A stretch of 64,000 bases of DNA from an uncultured Anaerolineales bacterium. Lineage in GTDB: Bacteria > Chloroflexota > Anaerolineae > Anaerolineales > UBA11858. A program made the translations under genes and the position numbers. Positions 33,141 through 63,374 of the stretch are shown piece after piece. The notes under the pieces are model-generated. The model saw nothing but the letters and a program-made list of their open reading frames with translations, ran no database searches and was not told the DNA's origin. Numbering within the stretch: the first letter of the stretch is position 1; each line of letters starts with the position of its first letter. The stretch is taken from positions 5,317 to 69,316 of the forward strand of contig CAZUSV010000001.1 of NCBI GenBank assembly GCA_964622645.1. The letters are read 5' to 3'.

Positions 33141-33836
33141 ATGGATGACTCCCTGAATTCAACACTTCAACAAGACGACCCAATATCCGCAGAATCGCCG
33201 CGCCTTTTAAGCGAAGTTGCTTACGAGCGCATCAAGGATGCTATTCGCAATGCGGACCTTGAGCCTGGACAACCACTTTCAGAAACTAAACTCTCAAAAC
33301 TGCTAGGAATCAGCAGGACACCAGTTCGCGAAGCGATACATCAATTAGCTCAAGAAGGTTTAGTGCAGATAATTCCCGGACGGGCAGTAACAGTTGCATC
33401 TCTTTCAGTTCAGGAGGTACTCAACGCTGTCCATGTGCGGACAATTCTGGAGCCCGAAGTGGCCCGTTTGGCAGCAGTGTCTATTTCTCCAGAAGATCTT
33501 GAGGCGCTTTGGAAAATTTTAGTGCAAATGGAACAAGCGATTGAGGGTGAGGACCGGGTAGCGTGGGCCAAAGCGGACAGCCAGTTTCATGAAATTTTGA
33601 GTGCTTCATGTCCGAATAAACTCCTGGGGGATATGGCTATTCAAGTTCGTAACCGGATTTCTTATCTGTCATCTGATAATCAAACGGGCCAAAAACGCAT
33701 GCAAGCCTGTACCCAAGAACACCGCCAGATTGTTGATGCCATTGCCGCAGGGGATCCACAAGAGGCTGAAGAAACCATGCGTAATCATCTGACTATGCTT
33801 CGAGAAAGTTATTTCCGTCGGCTTACGCTAACCTGA
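33141..33836 (+). CDS. GntR-family transcriptional regulator, FadR/FCD subfamily (paralogue of 32093-32788)
   Basis: LSETKLSKLLGISRTPVREAIHQLAQEGLVQIIPGRAVTV plus an FCD domain. Same length (231 aa) and alignable end to end with the divergent neighbour. Confidence 0.85.
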   Translation: MDDSLNSTLQQDDPISAESPRLLSEVAYERIKDAIRNADLEPGQPLSETKLSKLLGISRTPVREAIHQLAQEGLVQIIPGRAVTVASLSVQEVLNAVHVRTILEPEVARLAAVSISPEDLEALWKILVQMEQAIEGEDRVAWAKADSQFHEILSASCPNKLLGDMAIQVRNRISYLSSDNQTGQKRMQACTQEHRQIVDAIAAGDPQEAEETMRNHLTMLRESYFRRLTLT

Positions 33837-45496: not shown

Positions 45497-45523
45497 CAAT
45501 TCAGAATTACTAATTATCTCTTG

Positions 45524-46468
45524 ATGAACAAGCCTATTCTCTGCCTCGGAATTATGGTCGCCGACGTCGTCGGTCGTCCGTTGCGTGCTGTTCCCGATCC
45601 TGGACGATTAGTGCTGGTTGATGAGATGGGTTTGCATACGGGCGGCTGTGCGATCAATGCTGCCACAGCATTACGCCGACTTGGGTTGCCCGTAGAAATC
45701 ATTGGTAAGATCGGCTCTGATCCGCTGGGGGATTTCTTACTAAGTGAACTGGCTGATCGCGGCATCGGCGCGGCTGGTGTCAAGCGTGATTCCCAGGTAG
45801 GTACCTCAGGAACCATGGTGATGGTCGAACCCGATGGTGAGCGTCGCTTTGTGCACTATATTGGCGCCAACGCCATGCTGACTCTGGATGACATCGACTT
45901 TTCTGTCGTCAAGGATGCTGCTATCTTGCATGTTGCTGGTTGCCTGGTCTTGCCTGGAATTGACGGCGAACCTACCGCTGAATTGTTGCAGCGCGCCAGG
46001 GATGCTGGTGTGATCACATTTTTAGATGTTGTCTGGGATGACACTGGACGCTGGATGGAACTTGTGGGGCCGAGTTTGCCATATCTTGATTATTTCGTGC
46101 CTAGTTTGCCTGAAGCGCAAGCCATCACAGGCCGGGATGACCCTGTCGAAGCTGCCCAGGCGTTACTGGATCACGGCGTGGGTACGGTTGGTCTTAAGAT
46201 GGATTCGGAAGGCTGTTTGGTGATGACCAGTGATGGTGCAGTCCTCCGCCAACCCGCTTATGAAGTTGATGTTATCGATGCCACTGGTGCGGGAGATGCC
46301 TTTGCCGCAGGCTTTGTAGCTGGCGTGTATCACGGTTGGTCTATGGAGAAAATCGCGCCTTTTGCCAACGCCGTCGGAGCGCTGTGCGTCACTGGCCTCG
46401 GTGCCACCGGGGGTGTGCGCTCTTTGGATGAGACATTGGAATTTATGCAAAGCACACCACTAAGATAG
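45524..46468 (+). CDS. PfkB-family carbohydrate kinase (ribokinase fold)
   Basis: GGCAINAATALRRLG (GG switch region) and C-terminal DATGAGDAFAAGF. Confidence 0.85.
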   Translation: MNKPILCLGIMVADVVGRPLRAVPDPGRLVLVDEMGLHTGGCAINAATALRRLGLPVEIIGKIGSDPLGDFLLSELADRGIGAAGVKRDSQVGTSGTMVMVEPDGERRFVHYIGANAMLTLDDIDFSVVKDAAILHVAGCLVLPGIDGEPTAELLQRARDAGVITFLDVVWDDTGRWMELVGPSLPYLDYFVPSLPEAQAITGRDDPVEAAQALLDHGVGTVGLKMDSEGCLVMTSDGAVLRQPAYEVDVIDATGAGDAFAAGFVAGVYHGWSMEKIAPFANAVGALCVTGLGATGGVRSLDETLEFMQSTPLR

Positions 46469-47674: not shown

Positions 47675-49114
47675 ATGGAAAGTGACCTATTTTTAATCGA
47701 GATGATTCGCAGTGAACTGGCCGAGATCGTCGGCCAGGAGAATGTGTCGGTGGCGGAGAGTGACAAGCTGGTCTACTCCACCGATTGGTCCTGGATGCCG
47801 CAAATGTGGCTCGACCGCGGAAAACCTCTCACAAAACCCGATTACATCGTTCATCCTGGCTCTTCAGAAGAAATCTCTGAGATTATGGATATCGCCAACA
47901 AGTACCGTATGCCTGTAGTCCCTTGGGGTGGTGGTTCTGGTACGCAGGGCGGCGCGCTGCCACTGTTTGGCGGAATCCTGCTCGATATGAAGCGCATGAA
48001 CAAGGTCATCGAAATCGATGAAAAATCACTCACTGTAACTGCTGAAGCGGGCATCATCATTTCGCAACTGGAAATGGTTGTCAATGAAGTCGACTTGATG
48101 CTGCCGCATTATGCCGCCTCAAGCAACTGCGCTACCCTGGGTGGTGCATTGGCCCCGCGCGGCACCGGCACCATCAGCACCAAATACGGCAAAGCCGAAG
48201 ATATGGTCTTGAGCATGAAAGTGGTGCTGCCTACCGGTGAGATCATTCAGACGCCGCCGGTGCCCCAACACGCTGCCGGCCCAGATTGGTGGCGCATTTT
48301 CCTCGGGGCTGAAGGCACCTTCGGGGTTATCACCGAAGCTACCATGCAGCTCGATTATCTACCCGAGGAGCGCCTGCTGCGTGCCTTGCTCTTCGATGAT
48401 CTCAGCATCGCCCTGGAAGCCGGGCGCCAGATCATGACCCGCCGCTTGAATCCTTTTGTTATTCGGCTCTATGATCCCGAATCGACCAAATCCCGCGTCA
48501 AGAGCATCTTGGGGTACGAATATGAAGGTGCTTACATGGTGATGGGCTTTGACGGCGATCCAGACATCGCTGCCCTGGAGGAGCAGAAAGCGCTCAAGAT
48601 CTGTACTGACCTGGGTGCGCAGGATTTAGGCCGTGAACCTGGCGAAAAGTGGTGGAACCACCGCTATGATTTCTACTACCCGCCCATCAACTTGAAACTG
48701 CCCTGGATGTACGGCACCACCGAGACCATCACCACCTACGATAAAATCGAGAATCTGTACTGGGCGGTCAAGAACGCCGTCGAAGGCGGCTTCACAGATT
48801 GGGATATCAAGTTTATTGGCCACTTCTCACACTGGTTCCATTGGGGTGTGATGCTCTATTCGCGCTTCATTATCGAAGAGCCGCCCCAGGACGCCCAGGA
48901 AGCCCTGCGTCTGCACAACAAGGTCTGGAATGCGGCCATGCAGGCGGTGATCTCCAATGGCGGTATGATCAACGAGCACCATGGTGTGGGCTTGAAACTC
49001 TCTCGCTATATGCGCGGCCAGTTTGGTGAAGCCTGGCCGCTGCTGCTGAAACTCAAGAAGACCTTCGACCCCAACGGGATCATGAATCCCGGCAAGACGG
49101 GATTTGGATTTTAG
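47675..49114 (+). CDS. FAD-linked oxidase (GlcD / D-lactate dehydrogenase / alkyl-DHAP synthase superfamily)
   Basis: FAD-binding PCMH-type N-domain with PVVPWGGGSGTQGGALP. C-terminal HHGVGLKLSRYM ... FDPNGIMNPGK. Confidence 0.85.
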   Translation: MESDLFLIEMIRSELAEIVGQENVSVAESDKLVYSTDWSWMPQMWLDRGKPLTKPDYIVHPGSSEEISEIMDIANKYRMPVVPWGGGSGTQGGALPLFGGILLDMKRMNKVIEIDEKSLTVTAEAGIIISQLEMVVNEVDLMLPHYAASSNCATLGGALAPRGTGTISTKYGKAEDMVLSMKVVLPTGEIIQTPPVPQHAAGPDWWRIFLGAEGTFGVITEATMQLDYLPEERLLRALLFDDLSIALEAGRQIMTRRLNPFVIRLYDPESTKSRVKSILGYEYEGAYMVMGFDGDPDIAALEEQKALKICTDLGAQDLGREPGEKWWNHRYDFYYPPINLKLPWMYGTTETITTYDKIENLYWAVKNAVEGGFTDWDIKFIGHFSHWFHWGVMLYSRFIIEEPPQDAQEALRLHNKVWNAAMQAVISNGGMINEHHGVGLKLSRYMRGQFGEAWPLLLKLKKTFDPNGIMNPGKTGFGF

Positions 49115-49125
49115 GAGCGCATGTT

Positions 49126-50226
49126 ATGGTCACTCAAGAATTAATCAACACTACTGCCGATAACTGCCGCTACTGCCTGATGTGCCGACACCTGGCATCC
49201 GTCGAGTTGGTCACCCACAAAGAGACCTACTCCCCTCATGGCTGGGGAATCCTGATTGCTTCGGAACGCCGCGGGCTGCTGGAATGGAATGAAGATTCTG
49301 TGCATGCCCTCTATGCCGCAGTGGATAATGGCAACTCTCGCGCCCATTGCGTTACCGACCAGCCCTTCCCGGAGATCATCGCGGCCGTGCGCGCCCAGTT
49401 GGTGGAGAAGAAGCTCGCGCCTGATGTGGTCTACCAGCTCGAAGATGCCTTCAAGAAATTTGAGAACCCCTTCGCAGAGAAATCCCCCCAGGCTTCGGAA
49501 GGCAAAGGTGAAGTGGCTTTGTTTGTGGGGGATGAGGCCCAGTACCTCTGGCCGGATGCACTCGACTCGGCCCTGAAGTTGCTGGCTGCCCTTGATGTTG
49601 ATCCTGTTCTCGTTGGGGTGGGGCGCAATAACGGCTACCTGGCCAGCTCTCTCGGTCTGCTGGAGACCGCCAAGGAACTCGCTCGAGCCACCCTGGAGGA
49701 ACTCAATGCCACGGGTGCCAAGCGCATGTTGGTGCTCTCTCCGGGGGATTACTTCACTTTTAGTCAGCTCTACGAAGAACGCTTAGGCCTTCCCTGGCCT
49801 GAAGATGTAGAACTCCTCGAGCTGACAACCCTTCTGGCTGAGCAACTTGAGCAGGGTGTGCTTAAGTTCAAGAAATCAAATCACGCCTCGGTCTTCGCCT
49901 ACGTTGATCCAACCCTGTCCGTGCGGGTGCCGACACGCCATCAGGCCCCGCGTAGCTTGGCGGCAGCAGTGCAGCCCTCCTCGGGCGTAGAACTGCTTTG
50001 GAGAAAAGAACGCGCCCACCCTGTAGGTAGTACGGCGCTCCAGTTCACCAGGCCAGATATCGCTGAAAAGTTGACCCATGCCCGCTTGCAAGACGCTCAA
50101 CGGGTTGGTGCTCAAACGATGATTACGGAAGATCCCGGAACCTTGCATAAATTGTCTGGGATGGCCGATCAGTATAACCTACGCATCCAGGGACTTTATG
50201 AATTACTGGCTGAACACCTGGCTTAG
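49126..50226 (+). CDS. GlcF/LutA-like partner protein whose CCG cysteine-rich domains have lost all cysteines
   Basis: N-terminal CRYCLMCRHL (CxxCxxC) plus one more Cys (RAHC). No Cys in the remaining 290 or so residues, although segments echo CCG-domain proteins (ALFVGDEAQYLWPD, FAYVDPTLSVR, MITEDPGTLHKL). 12 nt after the flavoprotein gene. Confidence 0.55.
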   Translation: MVTQELINTTADNCRYCLMCRHLASVELVTHKETYSPHGWGILIASERRGLLEWNEDSVHALYAAVDNGNSRAHCVTDQPFPEIIAAVRAQLVEKKLAPDVVYQLEDAFKKFENPFAEKSPQASEGKGEVALFVGDEAQYLWPDALDSALKLLAALDVDPVLVGVGRNNGYLASSLGLLETAKELARATLEELNATGAKRMLVLSPGDYFTFSQLYEERLGLPWPEDVELLELTTLLAEQLEQGVLKFKKSNHASVFAYVDPTLSVRVPTRHQAPRSLAAAVQPSSGVELLWRKERAHPVGSTALQFTRPDIAEKLTHARLQDAQRVGAQTMITEDPGTLHKLSGMADQYNLRIQGLYELLAEHLA

Positions 50227-51199: not shown

Positions 51200-51302
51200 G
51201 CAGTATTCAGTTATCAGTAGTCAGTGAGTGGTGATCAGTGTGCAATTTTTCGCACTGGTTACTGCTTACTGTTTACTGGTTACTCTCCAAGGGAGTACCG
51301 CT

Positions 51303-52538
51303 ATGGGAAAAACCGTTGTCATCATCGGTACGTTGGATACCAAAGGGCCAGAGATCGCCTATCTGCGCGATCGTCTGCAGGCACTTGGTTTGGAGACGAT
51401 TGTGATCGATTCGGGCATTCTCGGAGAGCCCTTGGGGATCACTCTGGACCCTGCACGCGACTTCGACCACGCCAAAGCTGCGCGTTATGGTGGCACAACC
51501 ATCGCAGCGTTGCAGAATGCCGGTAGCCGCGGCAAAGCTGTCGAGGGAATGCGCGCGGCGGTCAAGAAATTGACCCTGGATTTATATGCCCAGGGCAAGC
51601 TGGACGCTATCACCAGTATGGGTGGAGCCGAAGGGGCGGTGATGGGTGCCGCGGCGATGATGGTCCTCCCAGTGGGTGTGCCCAAGGTATTGGTTTCGCC
51701 GATTGCCTCGGGATTACACTTTTTTGACCCTTTGGTGGGTACCAGCGATATCATGGTGGTGCACTCGATTGTCGATATCCTGGGGTTAAATCCGATTGCC
51801 ACTACTGTCTTCGACAATGTTGCGGCGGCGTTAAAGGGCCTGGCAGAACATGGTCATGAACTGGCACCGCCTGCGCCTGGTGATAAATTTGTCGCTGTTA
51901 CCATGCTGGGTAATACTACCAAGGCAGTGATGGCGCTCAAAGACCGCCTTGCCGACGATGGCTACGAAGCCGTGATCTTCCACTCTAATGGGGTCGGAGG
52001 TCCAGCCATGGAAGAGCTTGCCGAGGCAGGTCAGTTTGTGGGCGTGATTGACTTCACCACAAACGAATCCTACGACCCCATGACCGGCGGCATCCACAAC
52101 GGCGGCCCTGATCGTCTGAAGCGGGTCGGTCTGGCAGGCATACCTCAGGTTGTTGTTCCCGGCTGTATCGACTTTTCGGTATTCCATGCTGGACATATCC
52201 CGCAGGAATTGCAAGGCCGTCCAGTCTATGACCACAATCCTGAATACACCCTGGTGCGTGCCACACATGATGAAATGGTCGCCTTGGGGTATTTGTTTGC
52301 TGAGAGGCTTAATGTTTCTAAAGCCCCGGTGGTTTTAGCAATTCCCACACAAGGATTGTCGATCCCCAACGTCCCCAGCGGCCCCTTCTGGAATCCTGAA
52401 GCCGATGCTGCATTCCTGGAAGCACTGCGAAAAGATATCCGCACGGATTTCCCCATCCATACCTATCAACGCCACGTCAACGATCCGGAATTTGGTGTTG
52501 AAGTTGCGGAGTTGTTTATCGAATTGATGTCTTCATAA
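51303..52538 (+). CDS. UPF0261 / Tm-1-like ATP-binding domain protein, copy 1
   Basis: MGKTVVIIGTLDTKGPEIAYLRDRL. Alignable along its length with 61207-62412. Start moved to ATG 51303 (RBS AAGGGAG). Confidence 0.75.
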   Translation: MGKTVVIIGTLDTKGPEIAYLRDRLQALGLETIVIDSGILGEPLGITLDPARDFDHAKAARYGGTTIAALQNAGSRGKAVEGMRAAVKKLTLDLYAQGKLDAITSMGGAEGAVMGAAAMMVLPVGVPKVLVSPIASGLHFFDPLVGTSDIMVVHSIVDILGLNPIATTVFDNVAAALKGLAEHGHELAPPAPGDKFVAVTMLGNTTKAVMALKDRLADDGYEAVIFHSNGVGGPAMEELAEAGQFVGVIDFTTNESYDPMTGGIHNGGPDRLKRVGLAGIPQVVVPGCIDFSVFHAGHIPQELQGRPVYDHNPEYTLVRATHDEMVALGYLFAERLNVSKAPVVLAIPTQGLSIPNVPSGPFWNPEADAAFLEALRKDIRTDFPIHTYQRHVNDPEFGVEVAELFIELMSS

Positions 52539-54004: not shown

Positions 54005-55018
54005 ATGATAAAAGTGATCCTGGTTGGCATTGGTGGGTTTGCCAATGCCTGGATTCCAGTTATTATTGATTCGACTGAAGTCGATTTTGCCGGGTTTGTC
54101 GAGATCAACCCCAAAGTCATCAAGCAGCAGGTCAAGAAATATGGCTTTGCGCAGCAATTGATCTTCCCAACGTTGGAAGATGCTTTCGTTGAGGTGGAGG
54201 CTGATGGGGTTATCAATGTCACACCGCCTGCGGAGCATAAGGGTATCTCGCTGACAGCACTCCAAGCGGGCATTCCCGTTTTGTCAGAAAAGCCCTTAGC
54301 GGACTCCATGGCCTCGGCGCGTGAAATTGTACAGAAATCTACTCAAACTGGGGTGCTGCATATGGTCGCTCAGGATTACCGCTACAAGATCCCCATTCAA
54401 ACGGTGAAAGCTGTCTTAGATTCGGATGAGTTGGGCCGGGTGGACTCGGTTCGTGTGGATTTTTACAAGGGACCTCATCTGGAAATGAGCTATCTCGACG
54501 ATCTGCCTTATCCATTGCTGATGGATATGGCGATCCATCATTTCGATTTGATGCGCTTCTTTTTGGGGAGCAACCTTTCAGCTGTCAACGCACATAGCTG
54601 GGCACCGCCTTGGAATTGGTTCAAGGGCGAGAGCGCGGTTTCCGCGGTGCTCGAATTTGAGAACCAGGCCGTGGTCTCATATACCGCTAGTTGGTGTAGT
54701 ACTGGCCAGGAAACCACCTGGACTGGCAATTGGCGTTTTGATTGTGAGAATGGCGTCTTGTTGCTGCTCGATGACAAGGTTTATATTCAGCATCGCACAG
54801 ATGAGCTCGAAGACCTAGGAGGGTATTCTCAATACATCAGTGAAGATCTGCTTGAAGTGCCCTTGCTTGATCCTCCTCGAGTTGGGCGTGACTATTTGTT
54901 GCACGAATTCTGTCAGGCTATCTCAATGGGTGTAAAACCTAAAAATACGTGTATAGATAATATCGAATCGCTCAAAATCGTATTCGATGTCATAGAGGCT
55001 GCTGAGCTATGGAAATAG
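54005..55018 (+). CDS. Gfo/Idh/MocA-family oxidoreductase
   Basis: MIKVILVGIGGFANAW Rossmann start (GTG 53993 is also possible). GIPVLSEKPLA motif. About 337 aa. Confidence 0.8.
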   Translation: MIKVILVGIGGFANAWIPVIIDSTEVDFAGFVEINPKVIKQQVKKYGFAQQLIFPTLEDAFVEVEADGVINVTPPAEHKGISLTALQAGIPVLSEKPLADSMASAREIVQKSTQTGVLHMVAQDYRYKIPIQTVKAVLDSDELGRVDSVRVDFYKGPHLEMSYLDDLPYPLLMDMAIHHFDLMRFFLGSNLSAVNAHSWAPPWNWFKGESAVSAVLEFENQAVVSYTASWCSTGQETTWTGNWRFDCENGVLLLLDDKVYIQHRTDELEDLGGYSQYISEDLLEVPLLDPPRVGRDYLLHEFCQAISMGVKPKNTCIDNIESLKIVFDVIEAAELWK

Positions 55019-56280
55019 AACTCACTTACGGTCGCACCGGATTGAAGATATCCTTGCCCTTGGATGCAGACGTAATTACACCACGCTATGTAGAAGGTCT
55101 GCATGATGAAGCCAGCGCTCTCCAGGAACCCCTTCGCAATCCCATTGAATCCCCGGCCCTGGCTGAAAAAGTAGAGCCTGGCGATTCTGTTGTGGTGGTG
55201 CACACAGATATCACCCGCGCTACGCCTAATGATCGTATCCTGCCTGTTTTGTTGGGAGAACTGGAAACAGCGGGAGTCCGACCCGAGGACATCACGATGC
55301 TCAATGGCCTCGGTACCCATCGCCCTCAAACCGACGCCGAGTTGAGAGAGCTTTTGGGCGATGAAATCGTCGAGAATTATCGTTGTTTGCAGCATGATTG
55401 TCACGACGATGACAATCTTGTATCGCTAGGGGAAACATCATTAGGGCATCCAGTGCGGATCAACCGCCGCTACCTCGAAGCCGATGCCCGCATTTTGACC
55501 GGCTTCATCGAGCCGCACTTCTTTGCTGGATTTAGTGGGGGCCCCAAAGCGATTTTGCCCTCCCTGGCAGGTTCAGAGAGTGTTTTTACCAATCATGGCA
55601 TCGACATGATTGCACATGCCAAAGCAGCCTGGGGGATAACCACTGGCAATCCTATTTGGGAGGAGATGCGCGAGGTCGCATTGCGCACTGAAGCGACCTT
55701 TTTGCTAAATGTGGCTCTCAACGCTAAACGCCAGATCACCGGGGTCTTCGCCGGGGATATGCTGGCTGCCCACGCCCGGGGCTGTGAGTTCGTCAAAGAG
55801 AACGCCATGGTAGCTGTTGAGCATCCTTACGATATTGTCATCACCACCAACAGTGGCTACCCACTCGACCAGAATCTGTACCAATCCGTTAAGGGGATGA
55901 GCGCGGCCAGCCAGGTTGTGCGCAAGGGGGGCGCGATCATCATGGCCGCGGCCTGTGAAGATGGATTGCCCGATCATGGATTATATGCTTCGTTGCTGGC
56001 CGAGGCTGGTTCTCCCCAGGCTGTCTTAGATTTGATATCGAAACCTGGCTTCAGCGCCCAGGACCAATGGCAGGTGCAGGTCCAGGCCCAAATCCAGCAA
56101 AAGGCTGAGGTTTTCGTGTACAGCGATGGACTGACCGACCAGCAGATTGAGCGCGCCCTATTTACCCCCAGCCGGGATATCGCCGTCACCGTGAGCCAAT
56201 TGGTAGAAAAAATCGGCCCTCAGGCGCGCATCTGCGCCATCCCCGAAGGCCCGCAAACCATTCCTTATCTGCGAAATTAG
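55009..56280 (+). CDS. LarA-family (DUF2088) nickel-pincer-cofactor-dependent racemase/epimerase homologue
   Basis: VVVVHTDITRATPNDR, LNGLGTHRPQT, GFIEPHFFAGFSGGPKAILP correspond to the LarA Arg/His/His/Lys catalytic and cofactor-tether motifs as I remember them. Overlaps the upstream gene by 10 nt. Confidence 0.75.
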   Translation: MEIELTYGRTGLKISLPLDADVITPRYVEGLHDEASALQEPLRNPIESPALAEKVEPGDSVVVVHTDITRATPNDRILPVLLGELETAGVRPEDITMLNGLGTHRPQTDAELRELLGDEIVENYRCLQHDCHDDDNLVSLGETSLGHPVRINRRYLEADARILTGFIEPHFFAGFSGGPKAILPSLAGSESVFTNHGIDMIAHAKAAWGITTGNPIWEEMREVALRTEATFLLNVALNAKRQITGVFAGDMLAAHARGCEFVKENAMVAVEHPYDIVITTNSGYPLDQNLYQSVKGMSAASQVVRKGGAIIMAAACEDGLPDHGLYASLLAEAGSPQAVLDLISKPGFSAQDQWQVQVQAQIQQKAEVFVYSDGLTDQQIERALFTPSRDIAVTVSQLVEKIGPQARICAIPEGPQTIPYLRN

Positions 56281-56310
56281 GAACACGGTTCCTCTAAGGA
56301 ACCGTGTTCC
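56280..56310 (+). terminator. perfect 14-bp hairpin directly after the LarA-like gene (no U-run)
   Basis: GGAACACGGTTCCT cta AGGAACCGTGTTCC. It begins with the last base of the TAG stop codon (56278-56280). Confidence 0.45.
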
Positions 56311-56407
56311 TCCAAAGAATAAAGAATAAATCAAAAGTCATTTCTCAAATCAAACTTTTTTGCTCTGTGTTCTCCGCGACTCTGCGGTGAAAAATTGGGA
56401 TCAAATT

Positions 56408-57199
56408 ATGGACAGTAAATCCTATCGAATGAAAGAAATCATCAATTCGGCAGATCAGCGCAGTTTGATCGTCGAGACCAGTGCTGGATTGACCCTGGGG
56501 CCGGTGCCTGGCCTGGAGCGGTTCTCCAAGGCGGTGCTGCCGCTCCTGCCGCTGGTCGATGGCTTAGTCTGCAGCCCTGGGCAGGCACGCAAACTCATCA
56601 GCCGCACGCGCCAGGATGCGGGTCTGTTGGTGCGCGCTGATTGGACCAACGCCATACGCGGCCCCGATTTTGTCTTGCCTCCAGAGTCGATCAAGCATAT
56701 CCCTTTGCTGACACCCACGCAGGCCCTCGATCTGGGCGCGGCCGCGCTGGTCTTGACCTTCTTGCTAGGCCATGAGGAGCAGATCGAAGCCGAATGCCTG
56801 CGTCGAACGGTGCAAACCGCCCTGGAGGGAAGTCGCATTGGCGTGCCGCTGATCTTAGATATCCTCCCCAGCGGCCCTCGGGTAGTCCTGTTCAAGAAGG
56901 CTGTGGAACTGGGCGTGTCTTACGCGCTCGAAGGCGGTGCCGACGGCGCAGCGATCCCCTGGCCTGGATCAGAGTCCTTCGAAACGATCATCACTATGGC
57001 CGGCGAAGTGCCGATCTGGGTGAAGCCCTCCTCGTTGAATAATACTGAAGCTGAATTATCCCAGGCGCTCGACCTGGGTGGAGCCGGTTTATGGCTGGAC
57101 GAAACTGTTTTCGCTGAAGACGATACTATGGACCAATTGCGTGCATTCAAAGCGCAATTGCACACCGAAAAGTCCCCTCTCCCCCTGGGAGAGGCTTAG
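56408..57199 (+). CDS. DhnA/FbaB/LsrF-type class I aldolase paralogue lacking the Schiff-base lysine (probable pseudoenzyme)
   Basis: Alignable with the N-domain of the next gene. GADALKIPYTGDVESF (next gene) corresponds to GADGAAIPWPGSESF here, so Lys is replaced by Ala. Confidence 0.6.
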   Translation: MDSKSYRMKEIINSADQRSLIVETSAGLTLGPVPGLERFSKAVLPLLPLVDGLVCSPGQARKLISRTRQDAGLLVRADWTNAIRGPDFVLPPESIKHIPLLTPTQALDLGAAALVLTFLLGHEEQIEAECLRRTVQTALEGSRIGVPLILDILPSGPRVVLFKKAVELGVSYALEGGADGAAIPWPGSESFETIITMAGEVPIWVKPSSLNNTEAELSQALDLGGAGLWLDETVFAEDDTMDQLRAFKAQLHTEKSPLPLGEA

Positions 57200-57218: not shown

Positions 57219-58511
57219 ATGCAACCTGGATTACAAACCCGCATGGACCGCTTATTCAACCGCCACGGTGATGGCCGGGCGGTATGCGTCGCTGCCGATC
57301 ACGGCTATATGAGCGATGTCACCGATAACGTCGTGCAGCTGCGCCCGATCACCGAAGCTGTGATTCGCGGTGGTGTGGACGGCATCTTGCTCAGCCCGGG
57401 GCAGGCCATGAGACTGGCACCGCTATTTCAGGGTCGTGATGGCCCCGCGCTGATCATACGCGCCGATTGGATGAATATGCCCCGCCTGGGTACCTCCAAT
57501 GTCGCCAACTCCGTGCCGCAGCGCACTCTATTCCACCAGAAAGTGATCACTGCTGAACAAGCGTTAGCTTTGGGGGCCACGGCGATCACCATTTATCTGT
57601 TTCTGGGCAACAGCGACCGCATCGAAGCCGCCGGCATCGATGTCTGCGCCCGTTTTGCTGCCGAATGCCGGGAAGTAGGATTGCCCTGCATCATGGAGCC
57701 ACTGGCGGTCGGAGGACAGGTGACCGGGGCCAATATCGTCGAGATCCTTACCCTGGGGGCGCGCATGTGCGTCGAGTTAGGCGCCGACGCCCTCAAGATC
57801 CCCTACACCGGAGATGTGGAATCTTTCCGCCATCTGGTCGAGGTGTCTGAAGTGCCTGTTTTGGTATTGGGCGGGGCGCGCAGCGATTACGAGCGTGACG
57901 CCTTGGAGTTATTCGCTGAAGGGCTCGAAGCCGGGGGCCGCGGCTGCCTGATGGGCCGCAATGTGACCAAGTCGCCCGATCCCCAGCGCATGATCGAGCA
58001 GTTGTGCGGCATTGCCCATCAGGGCTGGTCTGTGGACCGCGCCTTGCGTACCGAAGAATGGGAATATCTGAAATTAAAAGCCCACCCAAGGAAATGCACC
58101 GGCTGCGACCTGTGCGTGGTGGCCTGTGTCGCTCATCATGAAAGGGACGCCTATGGTACCCATCTCTCTCGCCTGCGCATCGACCCTGGCAACAAACCCG
58201 GCCAGCACAAGGTCATGTTCTGTACGCTGTGCAAGAAATGTCTGGACGTCTGTCCTACGGATGCGCTGCGCTGGCACCCAGAGACCGGGGCGGTTGAGCT
58301 ATTGGTCGATAAGTGCACCGCCTGCGATGAGTGTGTGCAGATCTGCCCGACCGGGGTGATCGTCCACAGCGATGAGGGAATCCAACTATCATCCGGCGAA
58401 TACCTGGAATGGTACCCCGTAGATTGCGATCTTTGCGGAGGTGAACCGGAATGCACGCGCATCTGTCCCACAGGCGCCATCTTTGTCGATGAACGGGTGG
58501 AGGTGGCCTGA
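57219..58511 (+). CDS. class I aldolase (DhnA/FbaB/LsrF family) fused to a C-terminal four-cluster [4Fe-4S] polyferredoxin domain
   Basis: Aldolase part: VCVAADHGYM, ALIIRADWMN, ELGADALKIPYTG, LMGRNV. Ferredoxin part: CTGCDLCVVAC, CTLCKKCLDVCP, CTACDECVQICP, CDLCGGEPECTRICP. RBS GAGGGGAG before ATG 57219. Confidence 0.7.
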   Translation: MQPGLQTRMDRLFNRHGDGRAVCVAADHGYMSDVTDNVVQLRPITEAVIRGGVDGILLSPGQAMRLAPLFQGRDGPALIIRADWMNMPRLGTSNVANSVPQRTLFHQKVITAEQALALGATAITIYLFLGNSDRIEAAGIDVCARFAAECREVGLPCIMEPLAVGGQVTGANIVEILTLGARMCVELGADALKIPYTGDVESFRHLVEVSEVPVLVLGGARSDYERDALELFAEGLEAGGRGCLMGRNVTKSPDPQRMIEQLCGIAHQGWSVDRALRTEEWEYLKLKAHPRKCTGCDLCVVACVAHHERDAYGTHLSRLRIDPGNKPGQHKVMFCTLCKKCLDVCPTDALRWHPETGAVELLVDKCTACDECVQICPTGVIVHSDEGIQLSSGEYLEWYPVDCDLCGGEPECTRICPTGAIFVDERVEVA

Positions 58512-60316
58512 TGAATCTGCAAAAACGAGCCTACTGTGACCGTCTGCTGCGAGTGGATCTATCCAGCGGGAAAATCGAGACCACGCCGTTACCCGCCGAG
58601 GCCATGCCATCGATTTTGGGCGGCAAGGGTCTGGGAGCTTGGCTGCTCTATCATGAGCAACCCGTCGGTGTTGACCCCTTATCCCCCGAAAACCACCTGA
58701 TATTCCATAACGGCCCGCTAACGGGCACCACCGCCCCCACCGCCGGCCGCTTTGGCTGTACGACGCGCAGCCCGGCCACGGGCACATACAGCGATTCGTA
58801 TTGCGGTGGCTATTGGGGGCAGACACTCAAATATGCCGGTTATGACGGCGTGGTTTTGACTGGCGCCGCCTCGGGGCCAGTGGTCCTGCTCATCGATGAC
58901 GATCACGCCAAACTTGAATCCGCAACCCATCTTTGGGGGCAGAATATCACCGAGACCACGCACCAGCTCTGGGATCAGTACGGGCGTGACTGGCAGTCCC
59001 TGGTCATCGGCCCACCGGGCGAAAAGCAGCGTAATCTGGCGGGTGTTTTCAATGAGACGCGTGCCCTGGCACGCGGCGGTGTGGGCGCGGTGATGGGATC
59101 AAAGAACCTAAAAGCCATCCTGGTGCGCGGGCAGGGTTACGTGCGCGTCCAAGATCCAGAGAAATATGAGCGAGCCCTGCAGTTGGCCTTCCGCGCAGTA
59201 CGCATGTCCAGCGAGACCACCTTACTCAGCAAAGAGGGCACAGCCAATATCCTGGAGATCGTCAACGTCATGGGCGCTTTGCCCACGCGTAATTTCCAGC
59301 AGGGCCAGTTCGAAGCTGCCGAAGACGTTTCGGGCTGGGCTTTTCGCGAGCACGAATGGGTCAAGGAATATGCCTGTTTTGGCTGCCCTATCGCCTGTGG
59401 TAAATATACTCGCCCTTTTAGTGATGGCAAAGTTATCGAAGGGCCAGAATACGAGACCATTTTCGCCTTCGGCCCCAACTGTGCCATTGGCGATCGGCAG
59501 GTGATCAACCAACTGAACTGGTGGTGCGACGAGTACGGCCTGGACACGATCAGCGCCGGTGGGGTGATCGGCTTTGTGATGGAGGCCTTCGAGCGCGGGC
59601 TGATCGCTTCAAGTGATTTAGATGGTATTGAACCGCGCTTTGGAGATGCCCAGGCCGCCTTGGCATTAGTGGAAAAGATGGCTTGCGTCGAAGGCTGCGG
59701 CGAGTGGCTTTCCCAAGGTGTGGCCGCCATAGCCGCACGCTATCCCGAGGCCTCCGCTTTCGCCATGCATGTCAAAGGCTTAGAAATGCCTGCCTATCAT
59801 CCCAGCGCGGCCAAAGGCACCGCCCTGGCCTACGCCGTCTCGGAGCGCGGCGCCTGCCATTTACGCGGCGCGCCCCTCGGCGAGCTTTTCAGCGGAGCAG
59901 CCGAGCCCTTGAGTACGGAGGGCAAGCCGCAGATGTTCCGTGACCACCAGGCTGATAAAGCCGTCTGGGACAGCGCCTGTTTGTGCTATTTCCCCGGCTA
60001 TGGCATGAAGCTCAAAGAGTTGTGGCAGTTGGTCACCGCAGCTACCGGGTTTGATTATCCAACTGTGCATGAGTTCGAACGCATCGGTGAGCGAATTTCG
60101 ACCCTGGCGCGACTCTTTAACGTGCGCGAGGGCCTCAATCGCTCAGCAGACACACTGCCAGCCCGCAACCTCTCCCAACCGCTTCCGGTGGGTGCTGGTG
60201 GGGGGCAGATCGTCGACCTGGCGCCCATGCTGGATGAATATTATCAACTTATGGGCTGGGATGCGCAGGGTGTTCCCACGCCAGAGCGATTACGCGATTT
60301 AGGGATTAGGGAGTAA
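58511..60316 (+). CDS. tungsten-type aldehyde:ferredoxin oxidoreductase (AOR family)
   Basis: N-terminal LLRVDLSSGKIETTPLP...LGGKGLGAWLLY. Cluster Cys motif CFGCPIAC. Pterin-binding DEYGLDTISAGG. 601 aa. ATG shares one base with the upstream TGA (TGATG). Confidence 0.85.
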   Translation: MNLQKRAYCDRLLRVDLSSGKIETTPLPAEAMPSILGGKGLGAWLLYHEQPVGVDPLSPENHLIFHNGPLTGTTAPTAGRFGCTTRSPATGTYSDSYCGGYWGQTLKYAGYDGVVLTGAASGPVVLLIDDDHAKLESATHLWGQNITETTHQLWDQYGRDWQSLVIGPPGEKQRNLAGVFNETRALARGGVGAVMGSKNLKAILVRGQGYVRVQDPEKYERALQLAFRAVRMSSETTLLSKEGTANILEIVNVMGALPTRNFQQGQFEAAEDVSGWAFREHEWVKEYACFGCPIACGKYTRPFSDGKVIEGPEYETIFAFGPNCAIGDRQVINQLNWWCDEYGLDTISAGGVIGFVMEAFERGLIASSDLDGIEPRFGDAQAALALVEKMACVEGCGEWLSQGVAAIAARYPEASAFAMHVKGLEMPAYHPSAAKGTALAYAVSERGACHLRGAPLGELFSGAAEPLSTEGKPQMFRDHQADKAVWDSACLCYFPGYGMKLKELWQLVTAATGFDYPTVHEFERIGERISTLARLFNVREGLNRSADTLPARNLSQPLPVGAGGGQIVDLAPMLDEYYQLMGWDAQGVPTPERLRDLGIRE

Positions 60317-60437
60317 GGAGTAAGGAAATAGGGAGTAAGGAAGTAGGGAGTAGGAAGTAGGGAGTAGGAAGTAGGGAAAACTCGGTACCCTACTCACATA
60401 CTCCCTACTCCCATACTCCTTACTCCCCAAAGGTTTT
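60296..60437. repeat. strand-asymmetric tandem-repeat hairpin: 84-nt C-free purine-rich arm, 46-nt G-free arm, then a T-run
   Basis: No C from 60296 to 60379, with GGGAGTAAGG/GGAAGTAGGGAGTA words repeated. No G from 60385 to 60430 (CCCTACTC...CCTTACTCCCC). GGTTTTTT at 60431-60438. It starts inside the last codons of the AOR gene. Confidence 0.8.
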
Positions 60438-60441
60438 TTCC

Positions 60442-61188
60442 ATGATGCCTGATCAGTCAATACTATTCTACATTGTATTCGCCTTCGTAGCTTTCCTGAT
60501 TGGCCTGGCCAAAGGGGGCTTCGGCGGTTTGATGGGCGCCCTGGCGACACCCTTGATGGCCTTGGTAATGCCTGTTGACCAGGTAATCGGATTGGTCTTG
60601 CCTGTGCTCATGTTCGCCGATCTCTTCGCCTTGGCTTTCCACTGGCAGCGCTGGAATGGGCGCTTGGTCTTGTTGCTGCTGCCAGGCGCTGTGATCGGTG
60701 TGACCATTGGCACGCTCTTCATCACCAACGCACCTACCGAGACCTTGCGTTTGGCGCTGGGGATCATTGTGCTGATATTTGCCATCTACAAAATTCTCGA
60801 GAACCGCATCATCGGTTCCTTGGAGTATGAAAGCCGCAATTGGCATGGGTTGTTAGGCGGCACGATCACCGGTTTTTCTTCAGCGCTTGCTCACACCGGG
60901 GGGCCGCCGGTGAGCATCTATTTGTTGATGCAGAATATTTCCCCGCGAGTTTTTGTGGCTACTGCAGCCCTGTTTTTCTTCTCGTTGAACTGGATCAAAG
61001 TGCCGTATTACTTCTACGCCCAGTTATTCGATTTTCAAAAGCTGTGGTCGGTCATCTGGTTGGTCCCCCTGGTTCCCTTGGGGGCCTGGTTTGGCCGCTG
61101 GGTCAGCGAGAAAATAGATCCTAAAAGTTTTGAGCGCTTCATCCTGGTTTTGCTGACAATTTCAGCGCTGATCTTGATTGTTACCTGA
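60442..61188 (+). CDS. TSUP (TauE/SafE, DUF81) family anion exporter-like membrane protein
   Basis: 248 aa, 7-8 TM. GLAKGGFGGLMGALATPLM and ALAHTGGPPVSIYLL motifs. Confidence 0.75.
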   Translation: MMPDQSILFYIVFAFVAFLIGLAKGGFGGLMGALATPLMALVMPVDQVIGLVLPVLMFADLFALAFHWQRWNGRLVLLLLPGAVIGVTIGTLFITNAPTETLRLALGIIVLIFAIYKILENRIIGSLEYESRNWHGLLGGTITGFSSALAHTGGPPVSIYLLMQNISPRVFVATAALFFFSLNWIKVPYYFYAQLFDFQKLWSVIWLVPLVPLGAWFGRWVSEKIDPKSFERFILVLLTISALILIVT

Positions 61189-61206: not shown

Positions 61207-62412
61207 ATGCCCCAGCCCGTTGTTTTGGTTGGTTCACTGGATACGAAAGGGGAAGAATTTCAATTTGTCAGGGATTTGATCCAGGCGCAAGGCCTGGAGA
61301 CGATCCTGGTGAATTTCGGCGTTTTGGGTGATCCTGTACTTGAAGCGGATGTCAGTTCCGATGAGGTGGCGCGCGCCGGGGGCTTCAGCCTCGCTGAGTT
61401 GCGCCAGAAAGAAGACAAAACCATGGCCATGCGCACCATGACCGCGGGGCTGACCCAGGTCGTGGCGGACCTGTTCGAAAAAGGCCGCCTGGGCGGCATC
61501 CTCGGGATGGGTGGCGGCGGGGGCACCTCCATCGCTACCGCGGCTATGCGCGGCCTGCCTACCGGGGTACCCAAATTGATGCTCTCCACCGTAGCCGCTG
61601 GTGATGTGGCCCAATATGTTGGCACTCGTGATATCACCATGATGCCCTCGGTGGTCGATGTGGCTGGTATCAATTCCATCAGCCGCCAGATCTATGCGAA
61701 CGCCGCCGGGGCTATTGCCGGGATGGTGAGTCAAAAGCTCGAAGAAGTTGCTGAGGAAAAACCCCTCATCACGGCCAGCATGTTCGGCAACACCACTGAA
61801 TGCGTCACCCGGGCGCGTGAAAAATTAGAAGCCGCCGGTTACGAGGTGCTGGTTTTTCATGCCACTGGCACCGGTGGGCGCACCATGGAAGACCTGATCG
61901 CGGATGGATTTATCGCCGCTAATTTGGATATCACCACCACCGAACTGGCCGACGAGGTCTGTGGTGGCGTTCTCAGCGCCGGTCCCGAGCGCATGCTGGC
62001 TGCGGCAAAAGCTGGTATTCCCACATTGCTGGTTCCTGGTTGTGTGGATATGGCCAACTTCTGGGGGCGCGATACCGTGCCGGAGAAATATCAGGAACGA
62101 TTGCTCTATGAGTGGAATCCTAACATCACCTTGCTGCGCACCAACGTCGAAGAGAATAAGCGCATGGGTGAAATGATCGCCCAGGCCGCCAACCAGTCCA
62201 CTGGGCCGGTAGCGATCTTAATACCATTGAAGGGCGTTTCGCAGTTGGACTCTCCCGGTGGTGATTTCTGGGATCCCGAAGCCGATCAAGCCTGTTTCCA
62301 GACCATAAAGGAGAACCTCAAGGCTGGGATTCCAGTCGTCGAACTGGATCACAACATCAATGACCCCGAGTTCGCCGACACAGCGGTTGAGCTGTTGTTG
62401 GATATGCTTTAG
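61207..62412 (+). CDS. UPF0261 / Tm-1-like ATP-binding domain protein, copy 2
   Basis: MPQPVVLVGSLDTKGEEFQFVRDLI. RBS AAAGGAG. Paralogous to 51303-52538. Confidence 0.75.
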   Translation: MPQPVVLVGSLDTKGEEFQFVRDLIQAQGLETILVNFGVLGDPVLEADVSSDEVARAGGFSLAELRQKEDKTMAMRTMTAGLTQVVADLFEKGRLGGILGMGGGGGTSIATAAMRGLPTGVPKLMLSTVAAGDVAQYVGTRDITMMPSVVDVAGINSISRQIYANAAGAIAGMVSQKLEEVAEEKPLITASMFGNTTECVTRAREKLEAAGYEVLVFHATGTGGRTMEDLIADGFIAANLDITTTELADEVCGGVLSAGPERMLAAAKAGIPTLLVPGCVDMANFWGRDTVPEKYQERLLYEWNPNITLLRTNVEENKRMGEMIAQAANQSTGPVAILIPLKGVSQLDSPGGDFWDPEADQACFQTIKENLKAGIPVVELDHNINDPEFADTAVELLLDML

Positions 62413-62417
62413 AGAAT

Positions 62418-62529
62418 CTCACCGCTGAGACGCGGAGACCGCAGAGATGTACTTGAAGTAGAGACAAAGATGATTGTTGATCTCCCTCTCAAAGTATTCT
62501 CTGTGTACTCTGTGTCTCTGCGGTGAAAA
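62418..62529. repeat. 112-nt imperfect inverted repeat filling the spacer between UPF0261 and the PEP-hydrolase-like gene
   Basis: TCACCGCTGAGACGCGGAGACCGCAGAG (62418-62446) against TTCTCTGTGTACTCTGTGTCTCTGCGGTGAAAA (62497-62529). Confidence 0.7.
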
Positions 62530-62543
62530 TAAGGAGATTCAGA

Positions 62544-63374
62544 ATGGCCATTGCACGAAAAGAGATCATCAAACGTTTGAAGGCCCAGACCAAAGCCGGC
62601 AAGCCGATCGTCGGCTGCGGCGCGGGCACTGGCATCTCGGCTAAATTCGCCGAGGCTGGCGGCGCTGATATTATCATCATCTACAACTCCGGGCGCTACC
62701 GTATGGCTGGGCGTGGCTCTTTAGCAGGGTTGCTGCCCTATGGCGATGCCAACGGCATCGTGGTTGAGATGGCTGCTGAAGTACTGCCAGTGGTCAAGGA
62801 TACGCCAGTGCAGGCCGGAGTCTGCGGCACAGACCCCTTCCGTTTGATGCCGGTGTTCTTGAAGCAGTTGAAAGAGATAGGCTTCTCCGGAGTGCAGAAT
62901 TTCCCTACTGTCGGGTTATTCGATGGTAAGTTCCGCAACAACCTGGAAGCAACTGGAATGGGTTATGACAAGGAAGTCGAAATGATTCGGCTGGCCCATG
63001 AAATGGACTTCTTTACCACGCCTTATGTCTTTGCTGTGGAAGAGGCTCAAGCCATGACAAGAGCCGGAGCTGATCTGTTGGTCTGTCACGTCGGCCTGAC
63101 TACCGCGGGCAGCATCGGCGCGGCTGAGGCCTTCACGCTCGATGAAGCCATCGATAAGGTCATGGCCATGGCTGAGGCTTCATGGTCGATCAACAGAAAG
63201 CAGATGGTGATTTGCCACGGCGGTCCTTTTGACGAGCCCGAAAATGTCGGCGTTGCACTGAAGAAGATGCCCGGGATTGTTGGATTCTTTGGCGCTTCCA
63301 GTATCGAACGTTTACCGACGGAGCGCGCCATTCGCGGGCAGGTGGATGCGTTCAAGGGTCTGCAGATGGCGTGA
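62544..63374 (+). CDS. phosphoenolpyruvate hydrolase-like TIM barrel (PF09370-type, Tm-1 C-domain-like)
   Basis: [79 protein letters not shown] 7 nt before ATG 62544. Confidence 0.7.

Follow-up and report, generated by a model that had tools for sequence, protein, structure and literature searches.

We analysed a 64,000-nucleotide stretch of DNA from an uncultured Anaerolineales bacterium (GenBank assembly GCA_964622645.1, contig CAZUSV010000001.1, positions 5,317 to 69,316 of the forward strand), hereafter called the window. The window contains a gene that encodes a DhnA-type class I aldolase domain fused to a ferredoxin domain with four cysteine motifs. This fusion gene lies between the gene for AldoP, a DhnA-like paralogue without the Schiff-base lysine, and the gene for the large subunit of a tungsten-type aldehyde:ferredoxin oxidoreductase (AOR), and the three genes form a conserved core unit, a triad, at loci from several bacterial phyla. 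We slightly favour the reading that the triad encodes an enzyme system in which the tethered aldolase cleaves a ketose phosphate and the AOR oxidises the resulting aldehyde. An earlier reading made from the letters of the window alone (the sequence-only reading) had pointed out the fusion and the AOR gene and proposed that the two are metabolically coupled; its observation is confirmed here, and its interpretation is partly supported. The features at the core of the analysis are as follows.

56360-57199, plus strand: AldoP, lysine-less DhnA-like paralogue and first gene of the triad (NCBIfam ADH-synthase subfamily, below cutoff)
57219-58511, plus strand: aldolase-ferredoxin fusion, 430 residues in an uninterrupted frame
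57219-58049, plus strand: aldolase domain of the fusion, residues 1-277 (PF01791, match to MJ0400, AlphaFold2 fold)
57795-57797 (Lys193), 57297-57299 (Asp27) and 57696-57698 (Glu160), plus strand: candidate catalytic residues of the aldolase domain (alignment, invariance)
58074-58511, plus strand: AorA/WorS-type polyferredoxin domain of the fusion, residues ~286-430, with four cysteine motifs (Fer4_7, Fer4_9 and related Pfam matches)
58511-60316, plus strand: large subunit of an AOR-family, tungsten-type oxidoreductase, 601 residues (AFOR_N and AFOR_C)

The fusion gene starts at an ATG with GAGGGGAG ~9 nucleotides upstream. A longer form starting at a GTG at 57078 was rejected, because it would overlap the AldoP gene and because the homologues are ~430 residues long and cover 100% of the query. 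Pfam places the aldolase domain first and then several 4Fe-4S dicluster families at residues ~290-425. The motif GADALK is found at residues 188-193, and the four cysteine motifs at residues 293-303 (CTGCDLCVVAC), 335-346 (CTLCKKCLDVCP), 366-377 (CTACDECVQICP) and 403-417 (CDLCGGEPECTRICP). The TGA stop codon (58509-58511) overlaps the ATG of the AOR gene at 58511 by its A (TGATG). The sequence-only reading had described one open reading frame with a DhnA/LsrF-type aldolase and four cysteine motifs, overlapping in this way with an AOR-family gene that bears the motifs CFGCPIAC and DEYGLDTIS; the Pfam families, the motifs, the overlap and the alignment to 1AOR described below all agree with it.

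Homologues of the fusion were searched among 5.8 billion proteins, which gave 760 matches at E<=1e-5. The best 120 of these 760 are 74-94% identical to the fusion and ~430 residues long, and all have the architecture DeoC plus Fer4, so that the domain combination singled out by the sequence-only reading turns out to be widespread. Their sources are independent (JGI, ENA, NCBI and Logan assemblies). We also compared the window proteins by tblastn with 78 loci that carry the fusion gene, found by a scan of one genome per species, and 69 of these 78 loci contain the full-length fused gene. The notion that an assembly or frameshift artefact joined two separate genes can appeal to the general possibility of such errors and to frameshifts present in a few long-read loci from metagenome-assembled genomes (MAGs). 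Against it stand the single unbroken reading frame, the same length and architecture in the 120 best homologues from independent assemblies, the 69 loci with a full-length fused gene, and fused forms in several phyla. We give it practically no chance and consider it effectively refuted.

The aldolase domain belongs to the DhnA class I fold by profile, sequence and fold searches, as the sequence-only reading had supposed. PF01791 (DeoC/LacD) matches residues 22-250 of the fusion (E 2.9e-21, 76.6 bits against a cutoff of 23.8). Among sequences in the PDB, the ADH synthase MJ0400 (2QJG) is matched at E 3e-30, and the fructose-bisphosphate aldolase (FBPA) of T. tenax and LsrF are matched too. A single-chain AlphaFold2 model of the fusion has a mean pLDDT (predicted local distance difference test) of 77.5, with most of the barrel between 80 and 97. 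In Foldseek searches the predicted barrel matched 2QJG (E 3e-23, target-normalised template modelling (TM) score 0.86-0.89) as well as 1OJX and 3GKF, and superposition on structures of the DhnA family gave target-normalised TM scores of 0.78-0.89 at 22-29% identity. Lys193 aligns with the Schiff-base Lys177 of T. tenax FBPA. Conservation was counted over 126 fused homologues, including members at 36-54% identity: Lys193, Asp27 (in a DHG motif) and Glu160 are invariant, and the GG(A)R and GRN loops show little or no variation. This conservation of active-site and loop residues argues that the aldolase domain is not a dead scaffold. An extra loop is found at residues ~86-103 (RADWMNMPRLG...). 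Arg148 of T. tenax FBPA, which we take to be the binder of the distal phosphate, is replaced by Val in the fusion. Taken as a whole, the domain is under selection and is probably an active Schiff-base enzyme of a distinct DhnA clade.

The ferredoxin domain resembles the small subunits of structurally solved AOR-family complexes: AorA (8C0Z chain C, E 2.6e-16), the small subunit of WOR5 (6X6U chain B, 2.5e-13) and WorS (9MQX chain E, 1.9e-8). This agrees with the sequence-only reading, which had likened it to an AorA-type four-cluster subunit, and by this resemblance the domain is the predicted small electron-transfer subunit of the adjoining AOR. The 16 cysteines of the four motifs are the likely ligands of four predicted [4Fe-4S] clusters. 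In the 126 fused sequences, 15 of the 16 are invariant and Cys369 is kept in 96%. The last cysteine sits 14 residues from the C-terminus, so the fusion lacks the C-terminal helix that AorA uses for stacking; this extension of AorA is required for filament stacking (PMC12096430). As a separate observation, Cys369, the second cysteine of the third motif, is changed to histidine in three of the 126 fused sequences (P0121 for example), giving C-x2-H-x2-C, which suggests a His-ligated or otherwise altered third cluster in this subclade.

The protein encoded directly downstream is an AOR large subunit by all comparisons. AFOR_N is matched at E 1.2e-72 (244 bits, cutoff ~30) and AFOR_C at E 6.4e-125 (418 bits, cutoff ~27). 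The best matches among solved structures are WorL of Acetomicrobium mobile (9MQX chain D, E 1e-128) and the AOR of P. furiosus (1AOR, 3.5e-128), and further matches are AorB of Aromatoleum (8C0Z chain A, 5e-109), WOR5 (2e-63) and BamB (5e-52). In the alignment to 1AOR, CFGCPIAC aligns with Cys288, Cys291 and Cys295 of the P. furiosus enzyme and DEYGLDTIS with DELGLDTIS, and equivalents of Glu313 and His448 are also aligned. A cysteine is present at the site expected for the fourth ligand, Cys494 (DSACLCY vs DSAGLCL), residue numbers having been counted in the alignment for the other five positions. The enzyme is not a GAPOR: the GAPOR_Arch profile gives 47.5 bits against a cutoff of 1300, and the match is limited to residues 50-140. 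Because the AOR is nearest to AOR sensu stricto and scores far below the GAPOR cutoff, we favour a non-phosphorylated aldehyde as its substrate; oxidation of glyceraldehyde-3-phosphate in the manner of GAPOR is not favoured for the same reasons.

AldoP, the first gene of the triad, probably starts at the ATG at 56408. It matches the NCBIfam ADH-synthase subfamily at E 2.8e-19, below the cutoff, and has no Pfam match. Its counterparts of the candidate catalytic residues are lost: the Schiff-base lysine is changed to Ala (GADGAA), DHG to SAG, and the glutamate to Asp. The lysine, the Asp of DHG and the Glu are missing from AldoP in every phylum examined, KSB1 included, and an R-x-DWTN motif is kept. 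AldoP is therefore best read, from these substitutions, as a putative non-catalytic partner of the fusion.

The 78 species-level genomes with the fusion gene belong mostly to Anaerolineae and other Chloroflexota (70-92% identity), and the non-Chloroflexota carriers are KSB1, Bacteroidota, Ignavibacteriales and unclassified bacteria (47-51% identity). When representatives at the 50%-identity level were searched exhaustively, full-length fused ones turned up at identities as low as 35%. The source names of the fused proteins are generic, such as '4Fe-4S dicluster domain-containing protein', 'DhnA family FBA class Ia/ferredoxin' and 'Cgl0159 family protein'. The gene order AldoP, fusion, AOR is found in nearly all of the 78 loci, with AldoP directly upstream of the fusion. 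In 71 loci the AOR gene is directly downstream of the fusion, mostly with -4 to +15 nucleotides between the fusion stop and the projected AOR start, and wherever sequence is available downstream of a full-length fusion, an AOR gene comes next. The pairing of the two genes, which the sequence-only reading had named as a point to check, thus holds, and the only loci with downstream room and no AOR gene are L070, L071 and L072 (locus names are our own), in which the aldolase stops after the barrel and has no ferredoxin domain. AOR is missing exactly where the aldolase is unfused, and therefore neither the ferredoxin domain nor AOR occurs without the other. Across 44 loci, identity to the window copy co-varies between fusion and AOR (r = 0.95) and between fusion and AldoP (r = 0.91), which fits inheritance of the triad as one unit. 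When a rare unfused relative was used as the query, ~105 of its 120 best matches were fused, including proteins from Planctomycetota, Calditrichaeota and 'Zhuqueibacterota'; judging from these matches, the unfused relative is nested among fused proteins.

The three loci with unfused aldolases keep AldoP, and genes similar to URO-D come next (L070:9866-12718 and L072:9800-12500, the latter read from the translated frames). L070 also contains GH38, ROK, PfkB and a lyxose-isomerase-like cupin. The predicted aldehyde product of these unfused aldolases must have a different fate. In one genome (L083:10001-14429), an AAA_14/DUF4143 ATPase gene is inserted between fusion and AOR, and a ThiS/MoaD-like gene is found 2.4 kb downstream.

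In the window, the triad is located at the end of a 30-kb sugar locus whose genes are all on the same strand. The locus contains GntR regulators, an ABC sugar transporter, Gfo/Idh/MocA oxidoreductases, a creatininase-family protein, kinases, LarA and xylose-isomerase-like TIM barrels, one of which is related to ketose 3-epimerases (E 3e-27). The following neighbours bear on the function of the triad.

44000-45496, plus strand: FGGY kinase (XylB equivalog, 587 bits against a cutoff of 380)
45521-46468, plus strand: PfkB sugar kinase (best match IolC-like, below cutoff)
47675-49114, plus strand: GlcD-like FAD-linked 2-hydroxyacid dehydrogenase (FAD_binding_4, FAD-oxidase_C; glcD E 5e-53)
49126-50226, plus strand: Fe-S-like protein beside the GlcD-like gene (weak similarity to the C-terminal part of LdhH, E 2.8e-10)
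55009-56280, plus strand: LarA, homologue of the nickel-pincer lactate racemase (Lar_N, LarA_C; NCBIfam Ni_dep_LarA, 503 bits against a cutoff of 460)
60442-61188, plus strand: TSUP/TauE-family membrane protein (PF01925, E 4.7e-37)

The FGGY and PfkB kinases are candidate suppliers of a phosphorylated ketose. The GlcD-like gene and the adjacent LdhH-C-like gene are conserved as a pair in the window-type block and encode a possible sink for an acid product, and the TSUP protein is a possible anion exporter. The sequence-only reading had put the lysine-less paralogue, LarA and the TSUP exporter into one module with the fusion and AOR. The paralogue, AldoP, indeed belongs to the core. LarA (near the fusion in 19 of 63 Chloroflexota loci and 0 of 15 others) and TSUP (within 6 kb of the fusion in 24 of 63 and 0 of 15, and directly after AOR where present) are lineage-specific accessories outside the core triad.

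Sugar genes also surround the triad at other loci. About 10 Chloroflexota loci are of the L048 type, in which a FucI-like isomerase, a class II aldolase, an FGGY kinase and a LacI regulator accompany the triad; in L048 (L048:5285-9173) and the similar loci, genes for the FucI-like isomerase, a class II ketose-bisphosphate aldolase and the FGGY kinase directly precede it. AraA and an FGGY kinase are found in L042, an FGGY kinase and an alpha-galactosidase in L062, a PfkB kinase and/or DUF4432 in L058, L061 and L079, and glycosidase-like genes in L080. In 10 loci besides the window, the gene immediately before the triad encodes a kinase of the FGGY or PfkB type. In a Planctomycetota contig (L082:7718-12888), genes for a GlcD-like protein, AldoP, fusion and AOR form a compact unit among housekeeping genes, with the GlcD-like gene overlapping AldoP by 4 nucleotides. 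The recurring order is isomerase or epimerase, kinase, aldolase and AOR, often with a 2-hydroxyacid dehydrogenase close by.

Based on these observations, we propose how the system would work. AldoP and the aldolase domain of the fusion would together make up a heteromeric class I aldolase of the DhnA type, which would be tethered to the tungsten enzyme because the fused C-terminal domain is predicted to be the AOR small subunit. In sugar catabolism, the isomerase or epimerase and the kinase encoded nearby would provide a phosphorylated ketose. Lys193 would form a Schiff base with this ketose phosphate, and cleavage would give dihydroxyacetone phosphate (DHAP) and a small hydroxy-aldehyde, probably non-phosphorylated, for which lactaldehyde, glycolaldehyde and glyceraldehyde are candidates. 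The AOR would oxidise the hydroxy-aldehyde to the acid, and the two electrons would travel from the pterin cofactor via the cluster of the AOR itself and then the four fused-domain clusters, to be taken up by ferredoxin or some other soluble acceptor. In window-type loci, the acid would probably be processed by LarA and the GlcD-like dehydrogenase or exported by the TSUP protein. GlcD-type enzymes are D-specific, and LarA together with such a dehydrogenase would fit a route from L-lactate through D-lactate to pyruvate. Cleavage of a ketose phosphate is supported by the recurrence of sugar isomerase or epimerase, kinase, AOR and 2-hydroxyacid dehydrogenase together, and a 2-hydroxyacid product is supported by the linkage of the GlcD-like dehydrogenase in Chloroflexota and in the Planctomycetota contig and by LarA passing its equivalog cutoff. 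We infer complex formation, direction, substrate and any channelling, and likewise that the product of the aldolase is the substrate of the AOR.

Several observations weigh against this proposal. The catalytic Tyr146 of T. tenax FBPA is absent from the aldolase domain, where Leu162 takes its position (L, I or M across the family). The invariant Glu160, two residues before Leu162, occupies the position of Trp144 of the T. tenax enzyme and, being near the Schiff-base lysine, could in our view substitute for Tyr as acid/base. LsrF, a thiolase, likewise has no equivalent of Tyr146, and retro-aldol chemistry is therefore likely, not certain. The domain also scores below every NCBIfam equivalog cutoff (ADH synthase, 138 bits against 299; archaeal FBP aldolase, 125 against 430; LsrF, 91 against 297), and the subfamily PRK07226 gives 170 bits against 241. 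The aldolase is attached N-terminally to the ferredoxin domain, and this ferredoxin part is only moderate in the AlphaFold2 model (pLDDT ~58-84). The second, class II aldolase directly upstream in about 10 Chloroflexota loci is unexplained by the cleavage scheme, and since the flanking sugar genes vary by lineage, no single substrate emerges. No tup, moa or moe genes for tungstate uptake and pterin synthesis, which the sequence-only reading had suggested looking for in the genome, are found within the window. AorC (FAD/NAD) and a Bfu-type WorABC module are likewise missing from the 33-64 kb part of the window and from the inspected loci. Finally, all 78 fusion loci come from MAGs.

Other roles of the same proteins have to be weighed. 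The aldolase might act chiefly as a scaffold, its oligomers bringing AOR protomers together with their Fe-S wires and taking the place of the filament helix of AorA; the AOR would then be a general aldehyde detoxifier, with a substrate that could come from sources other than this aldolase. PDB entries of the DhnA family with 10 or 20 chains each, decamers in crystals, and the end of the fusion without an extension past the last cluster motif are consistent with such a role, as are the broad aldehyde specificity of AORs and the general detoxification for which they are invoked in MAG studies. We nevertheless regard it as unlikely: the catalytic residues Lys, Asp and Glu do not vary from phylum to phylum, nor do the phosphate-loop motifs, and the aldolase pair exists without AOR in sugar loci, which makes it an enzyme in its own right. 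A scaffold role would also be compatible with metabolic coupling. The Schiff-base chemistry might instead be of another kind, either LsrF-like cleavage of a diketone phosphate or transaldol transfer as in ADH synthase, with the AOR acting on the carbonyl partner or product. ADH synthase (MJ0400) and LsrF are among the best NCBIfam and PDB matches besides FBP aldolase, the equivalent of Tyr146 is missing as in LsrF, and the often adjacent FGGY kinase has the LsrK model among its weaker FGGY-family matches. Yet no LsrG-like isomerase or CoA-linked gene is found in the loci examined, all equivalog cutoffs are missed, and we suggest that the invariant Glu could replace Tyr, so we rate this chemistry as quite improbable.

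The same architecture could also run in the opposite direction, with low-potential ferredoxin feeding the fused clusters, the AOR reducing an acid to the aldehyde, and the tethered aldolase condensing this aldehyde with DHAP. AORs are reversible, and the Aromatoleum enzyme reduces acids (PMC12096430). The architecture is symmetrical with respect to direction, and we infer that aldol condensation could exert a thermodynamic pull on an otherwise unfavourable reduction. However, the neighbouring genes serve uptake and catabolism (ABC sugar transporter, glycosidases, isomerases, kinases, GntR and LacI regulators), and there is no sign of a need to build ketose phosphates from acids; reductive operation is in our judgement very unlikely. 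More specific pathways were considered for the oxidative direction. The sulfoquinovose pathway had been suggested by the TauE-family gene and by a weak match to SftI, the only NCBIfam match of the FucI-like isomerase of L048 (83 bits against 700). It was rejected and is kept only as a low-probability variant: no sulfoquinovosidase is found in the window, and the TSUP and FucI-like genes occur in different locus types. An inositol pathway, suggested by the IolC-like PfkB kinase, the IolN-like creatininase-family protein and the Cgl0159-like Pfam match, was rejected with all scores below cutoffs. Literature searches for Cgl0159/cg0198 were swamped by an unrelated meaning of 'DHNA'.

The proposed oxidative system can be compared with several known ones. 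Its large subunit is homologous to those of AorAB(C) (8C0Z), WorABCSL (9MQX) and WOR5/ASOR of P. furiosus (6X6U), with E values of 1e-128 to 5e-109, and 2e-63 for WOR5. AorA, WorS and the WOR5 small subunit are homologues of the fused ferredoxin domain with four [4Fe-4S] motifs, and both there and here the corresponding gene adjoins that of the large subunit. Unlike these free-standing small subunits, the one described here is the C-terminal domain of an aldolase, and unlike AorA it has no C-terminal stacking helix. Protomers of AOR large and small subunits plug into an FAD subunit in the AorABC nanowire (PMC10413684) and into the bifurcating Bfu module in WorABCSL (PMC12318220). In AorABC and WorABCSL the attached module accepts electrons, whereas the module attached here would supply the substrate. 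The aldolase domain shares the (beta/alpha)8 barrel with T. tenax FBP aldolase (1OJX), MJ0400 (2QJG) and E. coli LsrF (3GKF), and further family features are the Schiff-base lysine in GAD-x-x-K, the Asp of DHG and the GG-x-K/R and GRN loops. Unlike these three enzymes, it is paired with a lysine-less paralogue, joined to a ferredoxin and provided with the extra loop.

The closest functional analogue is RhaEW, a class II-type rhamnulose-1-phosphate aldolase fused to an NAD-dependent L-lactaldehyde dehydrogenase in Chloroflexus and Bacillus, whose aldolase step depends on the dehydrogenase step (PMC3870299). In both cases an aldolase is covalently joined to the oxidation machinery for its aldehyde, in sugar catabolic loci and with Chloroflexi among the hosts. 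The proteins are unrelated, however, and the class I aldolase here is joined to the Fe-S subunit of a ferredoxin-reducing pterin enzyme and not to the oxidising enzyme. The reaction order, aldol cleavage and then ferredoxin-linked aldehyde oxidation, is also that of archaeal pathways. Glycolysis in Pyrococcus uses a class IA FBP aldolase and then GAPOR. In the non-phosphorylative branch of the archaeal Entner-Doudoroff pathway, KD(P)G aldolase is followed by an aldehyde oxidoreductase (PMC2063504). The archaeal enzymes are separate and have no gene link to a small subunit, whereas the hosts here are mesophilic bacterial lineages known only from MAGs. The pairing of a catalytic aldolase with a paralogue stripped of catalytic residues resembles GatY/GatZ and KbaY/KbaZ, in which a class II tagatose-bisphosphate aldolase has a non-catalytic paralogous partner. 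These differ in aldolase class and fold family and have no redox partner.

The sequence-only reading knew of no described aldolase-ferredoxin fusion, and in our full-text literature searches no account of an aldolase fused to a polyferredoxin was found either. Neither an aldolase nor a fusion is mentioned in the WorABCSL paper or in a review of tungsten enzymes from 2025. In a MAG study, AORs were speculated to detoxify lactaldehyde from rhamnose, and the aldolase-ferredoxin architecture is unmentioned (PMC9324843).

A wider and more tentative picture is a supercomplex in which a ring of catalytic and lysine-less aldolase subunits carries several AOR protomers, each wired by its fused four-cluster domain, so that the toxic hydroxy-aldehyde never leaves the complex; we find this possible, though doubtful. 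If true, it would be a ferredoxin-reducing branch of deoxy- or rare-sugar breakdown in uncultured fermenters (Anaerolineae, KSB1, Bacteroidota, Planctomycetota and others) and the first bacterial AOR with a defined, genetically fixed source of its physiological substrate. In a sharper variant for the TSUP-linked Chloroflexota loci, the aldehyde would be sulfolactaldehyde or lactaldehyde and the acid would be exported, the sulfo route being of low probability. Most bacterial tungsten enzymes of the AOR family have no clear physiological substrate, and the usual description is that of a broad aldehyde detoxifier. In the case described here, the genome links an AOR to a single enzyme that produces an aldehyde, so that the role of this AOR can be tested directly. 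In addition, the fusion widens the view of AOR large- and small-subunit protomers as plug-in units. The triad is spread over several phyla of abundant uncultured anaerobes from sludge, sediments and soils, and the proposed module would raise the ferredoxin and hydrogen yield of its hosts from sugars. It is also a candidate for biocatalysis, from sugar phosphate to hydroxy-acid or, in reverse, from acid to sugar phosphate.

The triad is bracketed in the window by two strongly predicted hairpins.

56279-56311, plus strand: perfect 15-bp hairpin directly after the LarA stop and before AldoP (GGAACACGGTTCC...GGAACCGTGTTCC; minimum free energy -25.9 kcal/mol, z -7.65)
60306-60440, plus strand: long imperfect hairpin of GGGAGTA(A)GGA repeats facing their complement, followed by TTTTTT (minimum free energy -62.4 kcal/mol, z -5.8)

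The upstream hairpin has no T-run and may be a transcript boundary or a stabiliser in front of the triad. The downstream hairpin resembles a terminator that closes the triad: none of 200 shuffled sequences was as stable, the 43-nucleotide arms of the inverted repeat are 84% complementary, and the stem is ~40 bp long. Its purine-rich repeat is confined, within the window, to the region between AOR and TSUP. A simple scan of the window for promoters and terminators gave nothing above the shuffled expectation, and the downstream hairpin was not listed by the terminator scan. No Rfam elements or riboswitches, including the Moco riboswitch, were found in the window. A palindrome, CCTCTCCCCCTGGGAGAGG at 57176-57194, forms the 3' end of the AldoP gene, where it encodes the non-conserved C-terminus ...SPLPLGEA. 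It is the sole copy in the window and looks like a small inserted repeat element, and GGGTGAGGGGAG, which comes right after it, serves as the ribosome-binding site of the fusion gene.

Two other families recur beside the triad or the aldolase pair. A DUF4432 gene is found next to the aldolase pair in several phyla, with or without AOR (L058:13796-14845, L061:11987-13030, L070:8816-9856 and L079:14003-15064); two papers found on DUF4432 were uninformative on the family. At loci outside Chloroflexota, AOR is followed by the gene for a conserved membrane protein of ~210 residues with about six hydrophobic segments and the motif FKFLN-x-PFF-x-CQ (L058:13156-13776, L079:13124-13753, L060:13070-13747 and L062:12803-13438). 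This protein belongs to no Pfam family and resembles neither TSUP nor the lyxose-isomerase-like protein. It is located in the place of TSUP, and a transporter tied to the module may have been replaced there by a non-orthologous one.

Two UPF0261 genes and a PEP-hydrolase-like gene (51228-52538, 61207-62412 and 62523-63374) correspond to the two halves of the plant protein Tm-1 (E 1e-85 to PDB 3WRY), and these Tm-1-like genes are conserved around the triad in the window-type block. The sugar locus begins at two divergent GntR/FCD regulator genes (32093-32788 on the minus strand and 33141-33836 on the plus strand). The preceding part of the window (49-32000) is unrelated to this locus and encodes an RHS/CHAT protein, a 1137-residue protein with FHA-domain matches, a BTAD-AAA-TPR regulator, an M50 peptidase-TPR protein and a squalene/phytoene synthase-like protein.

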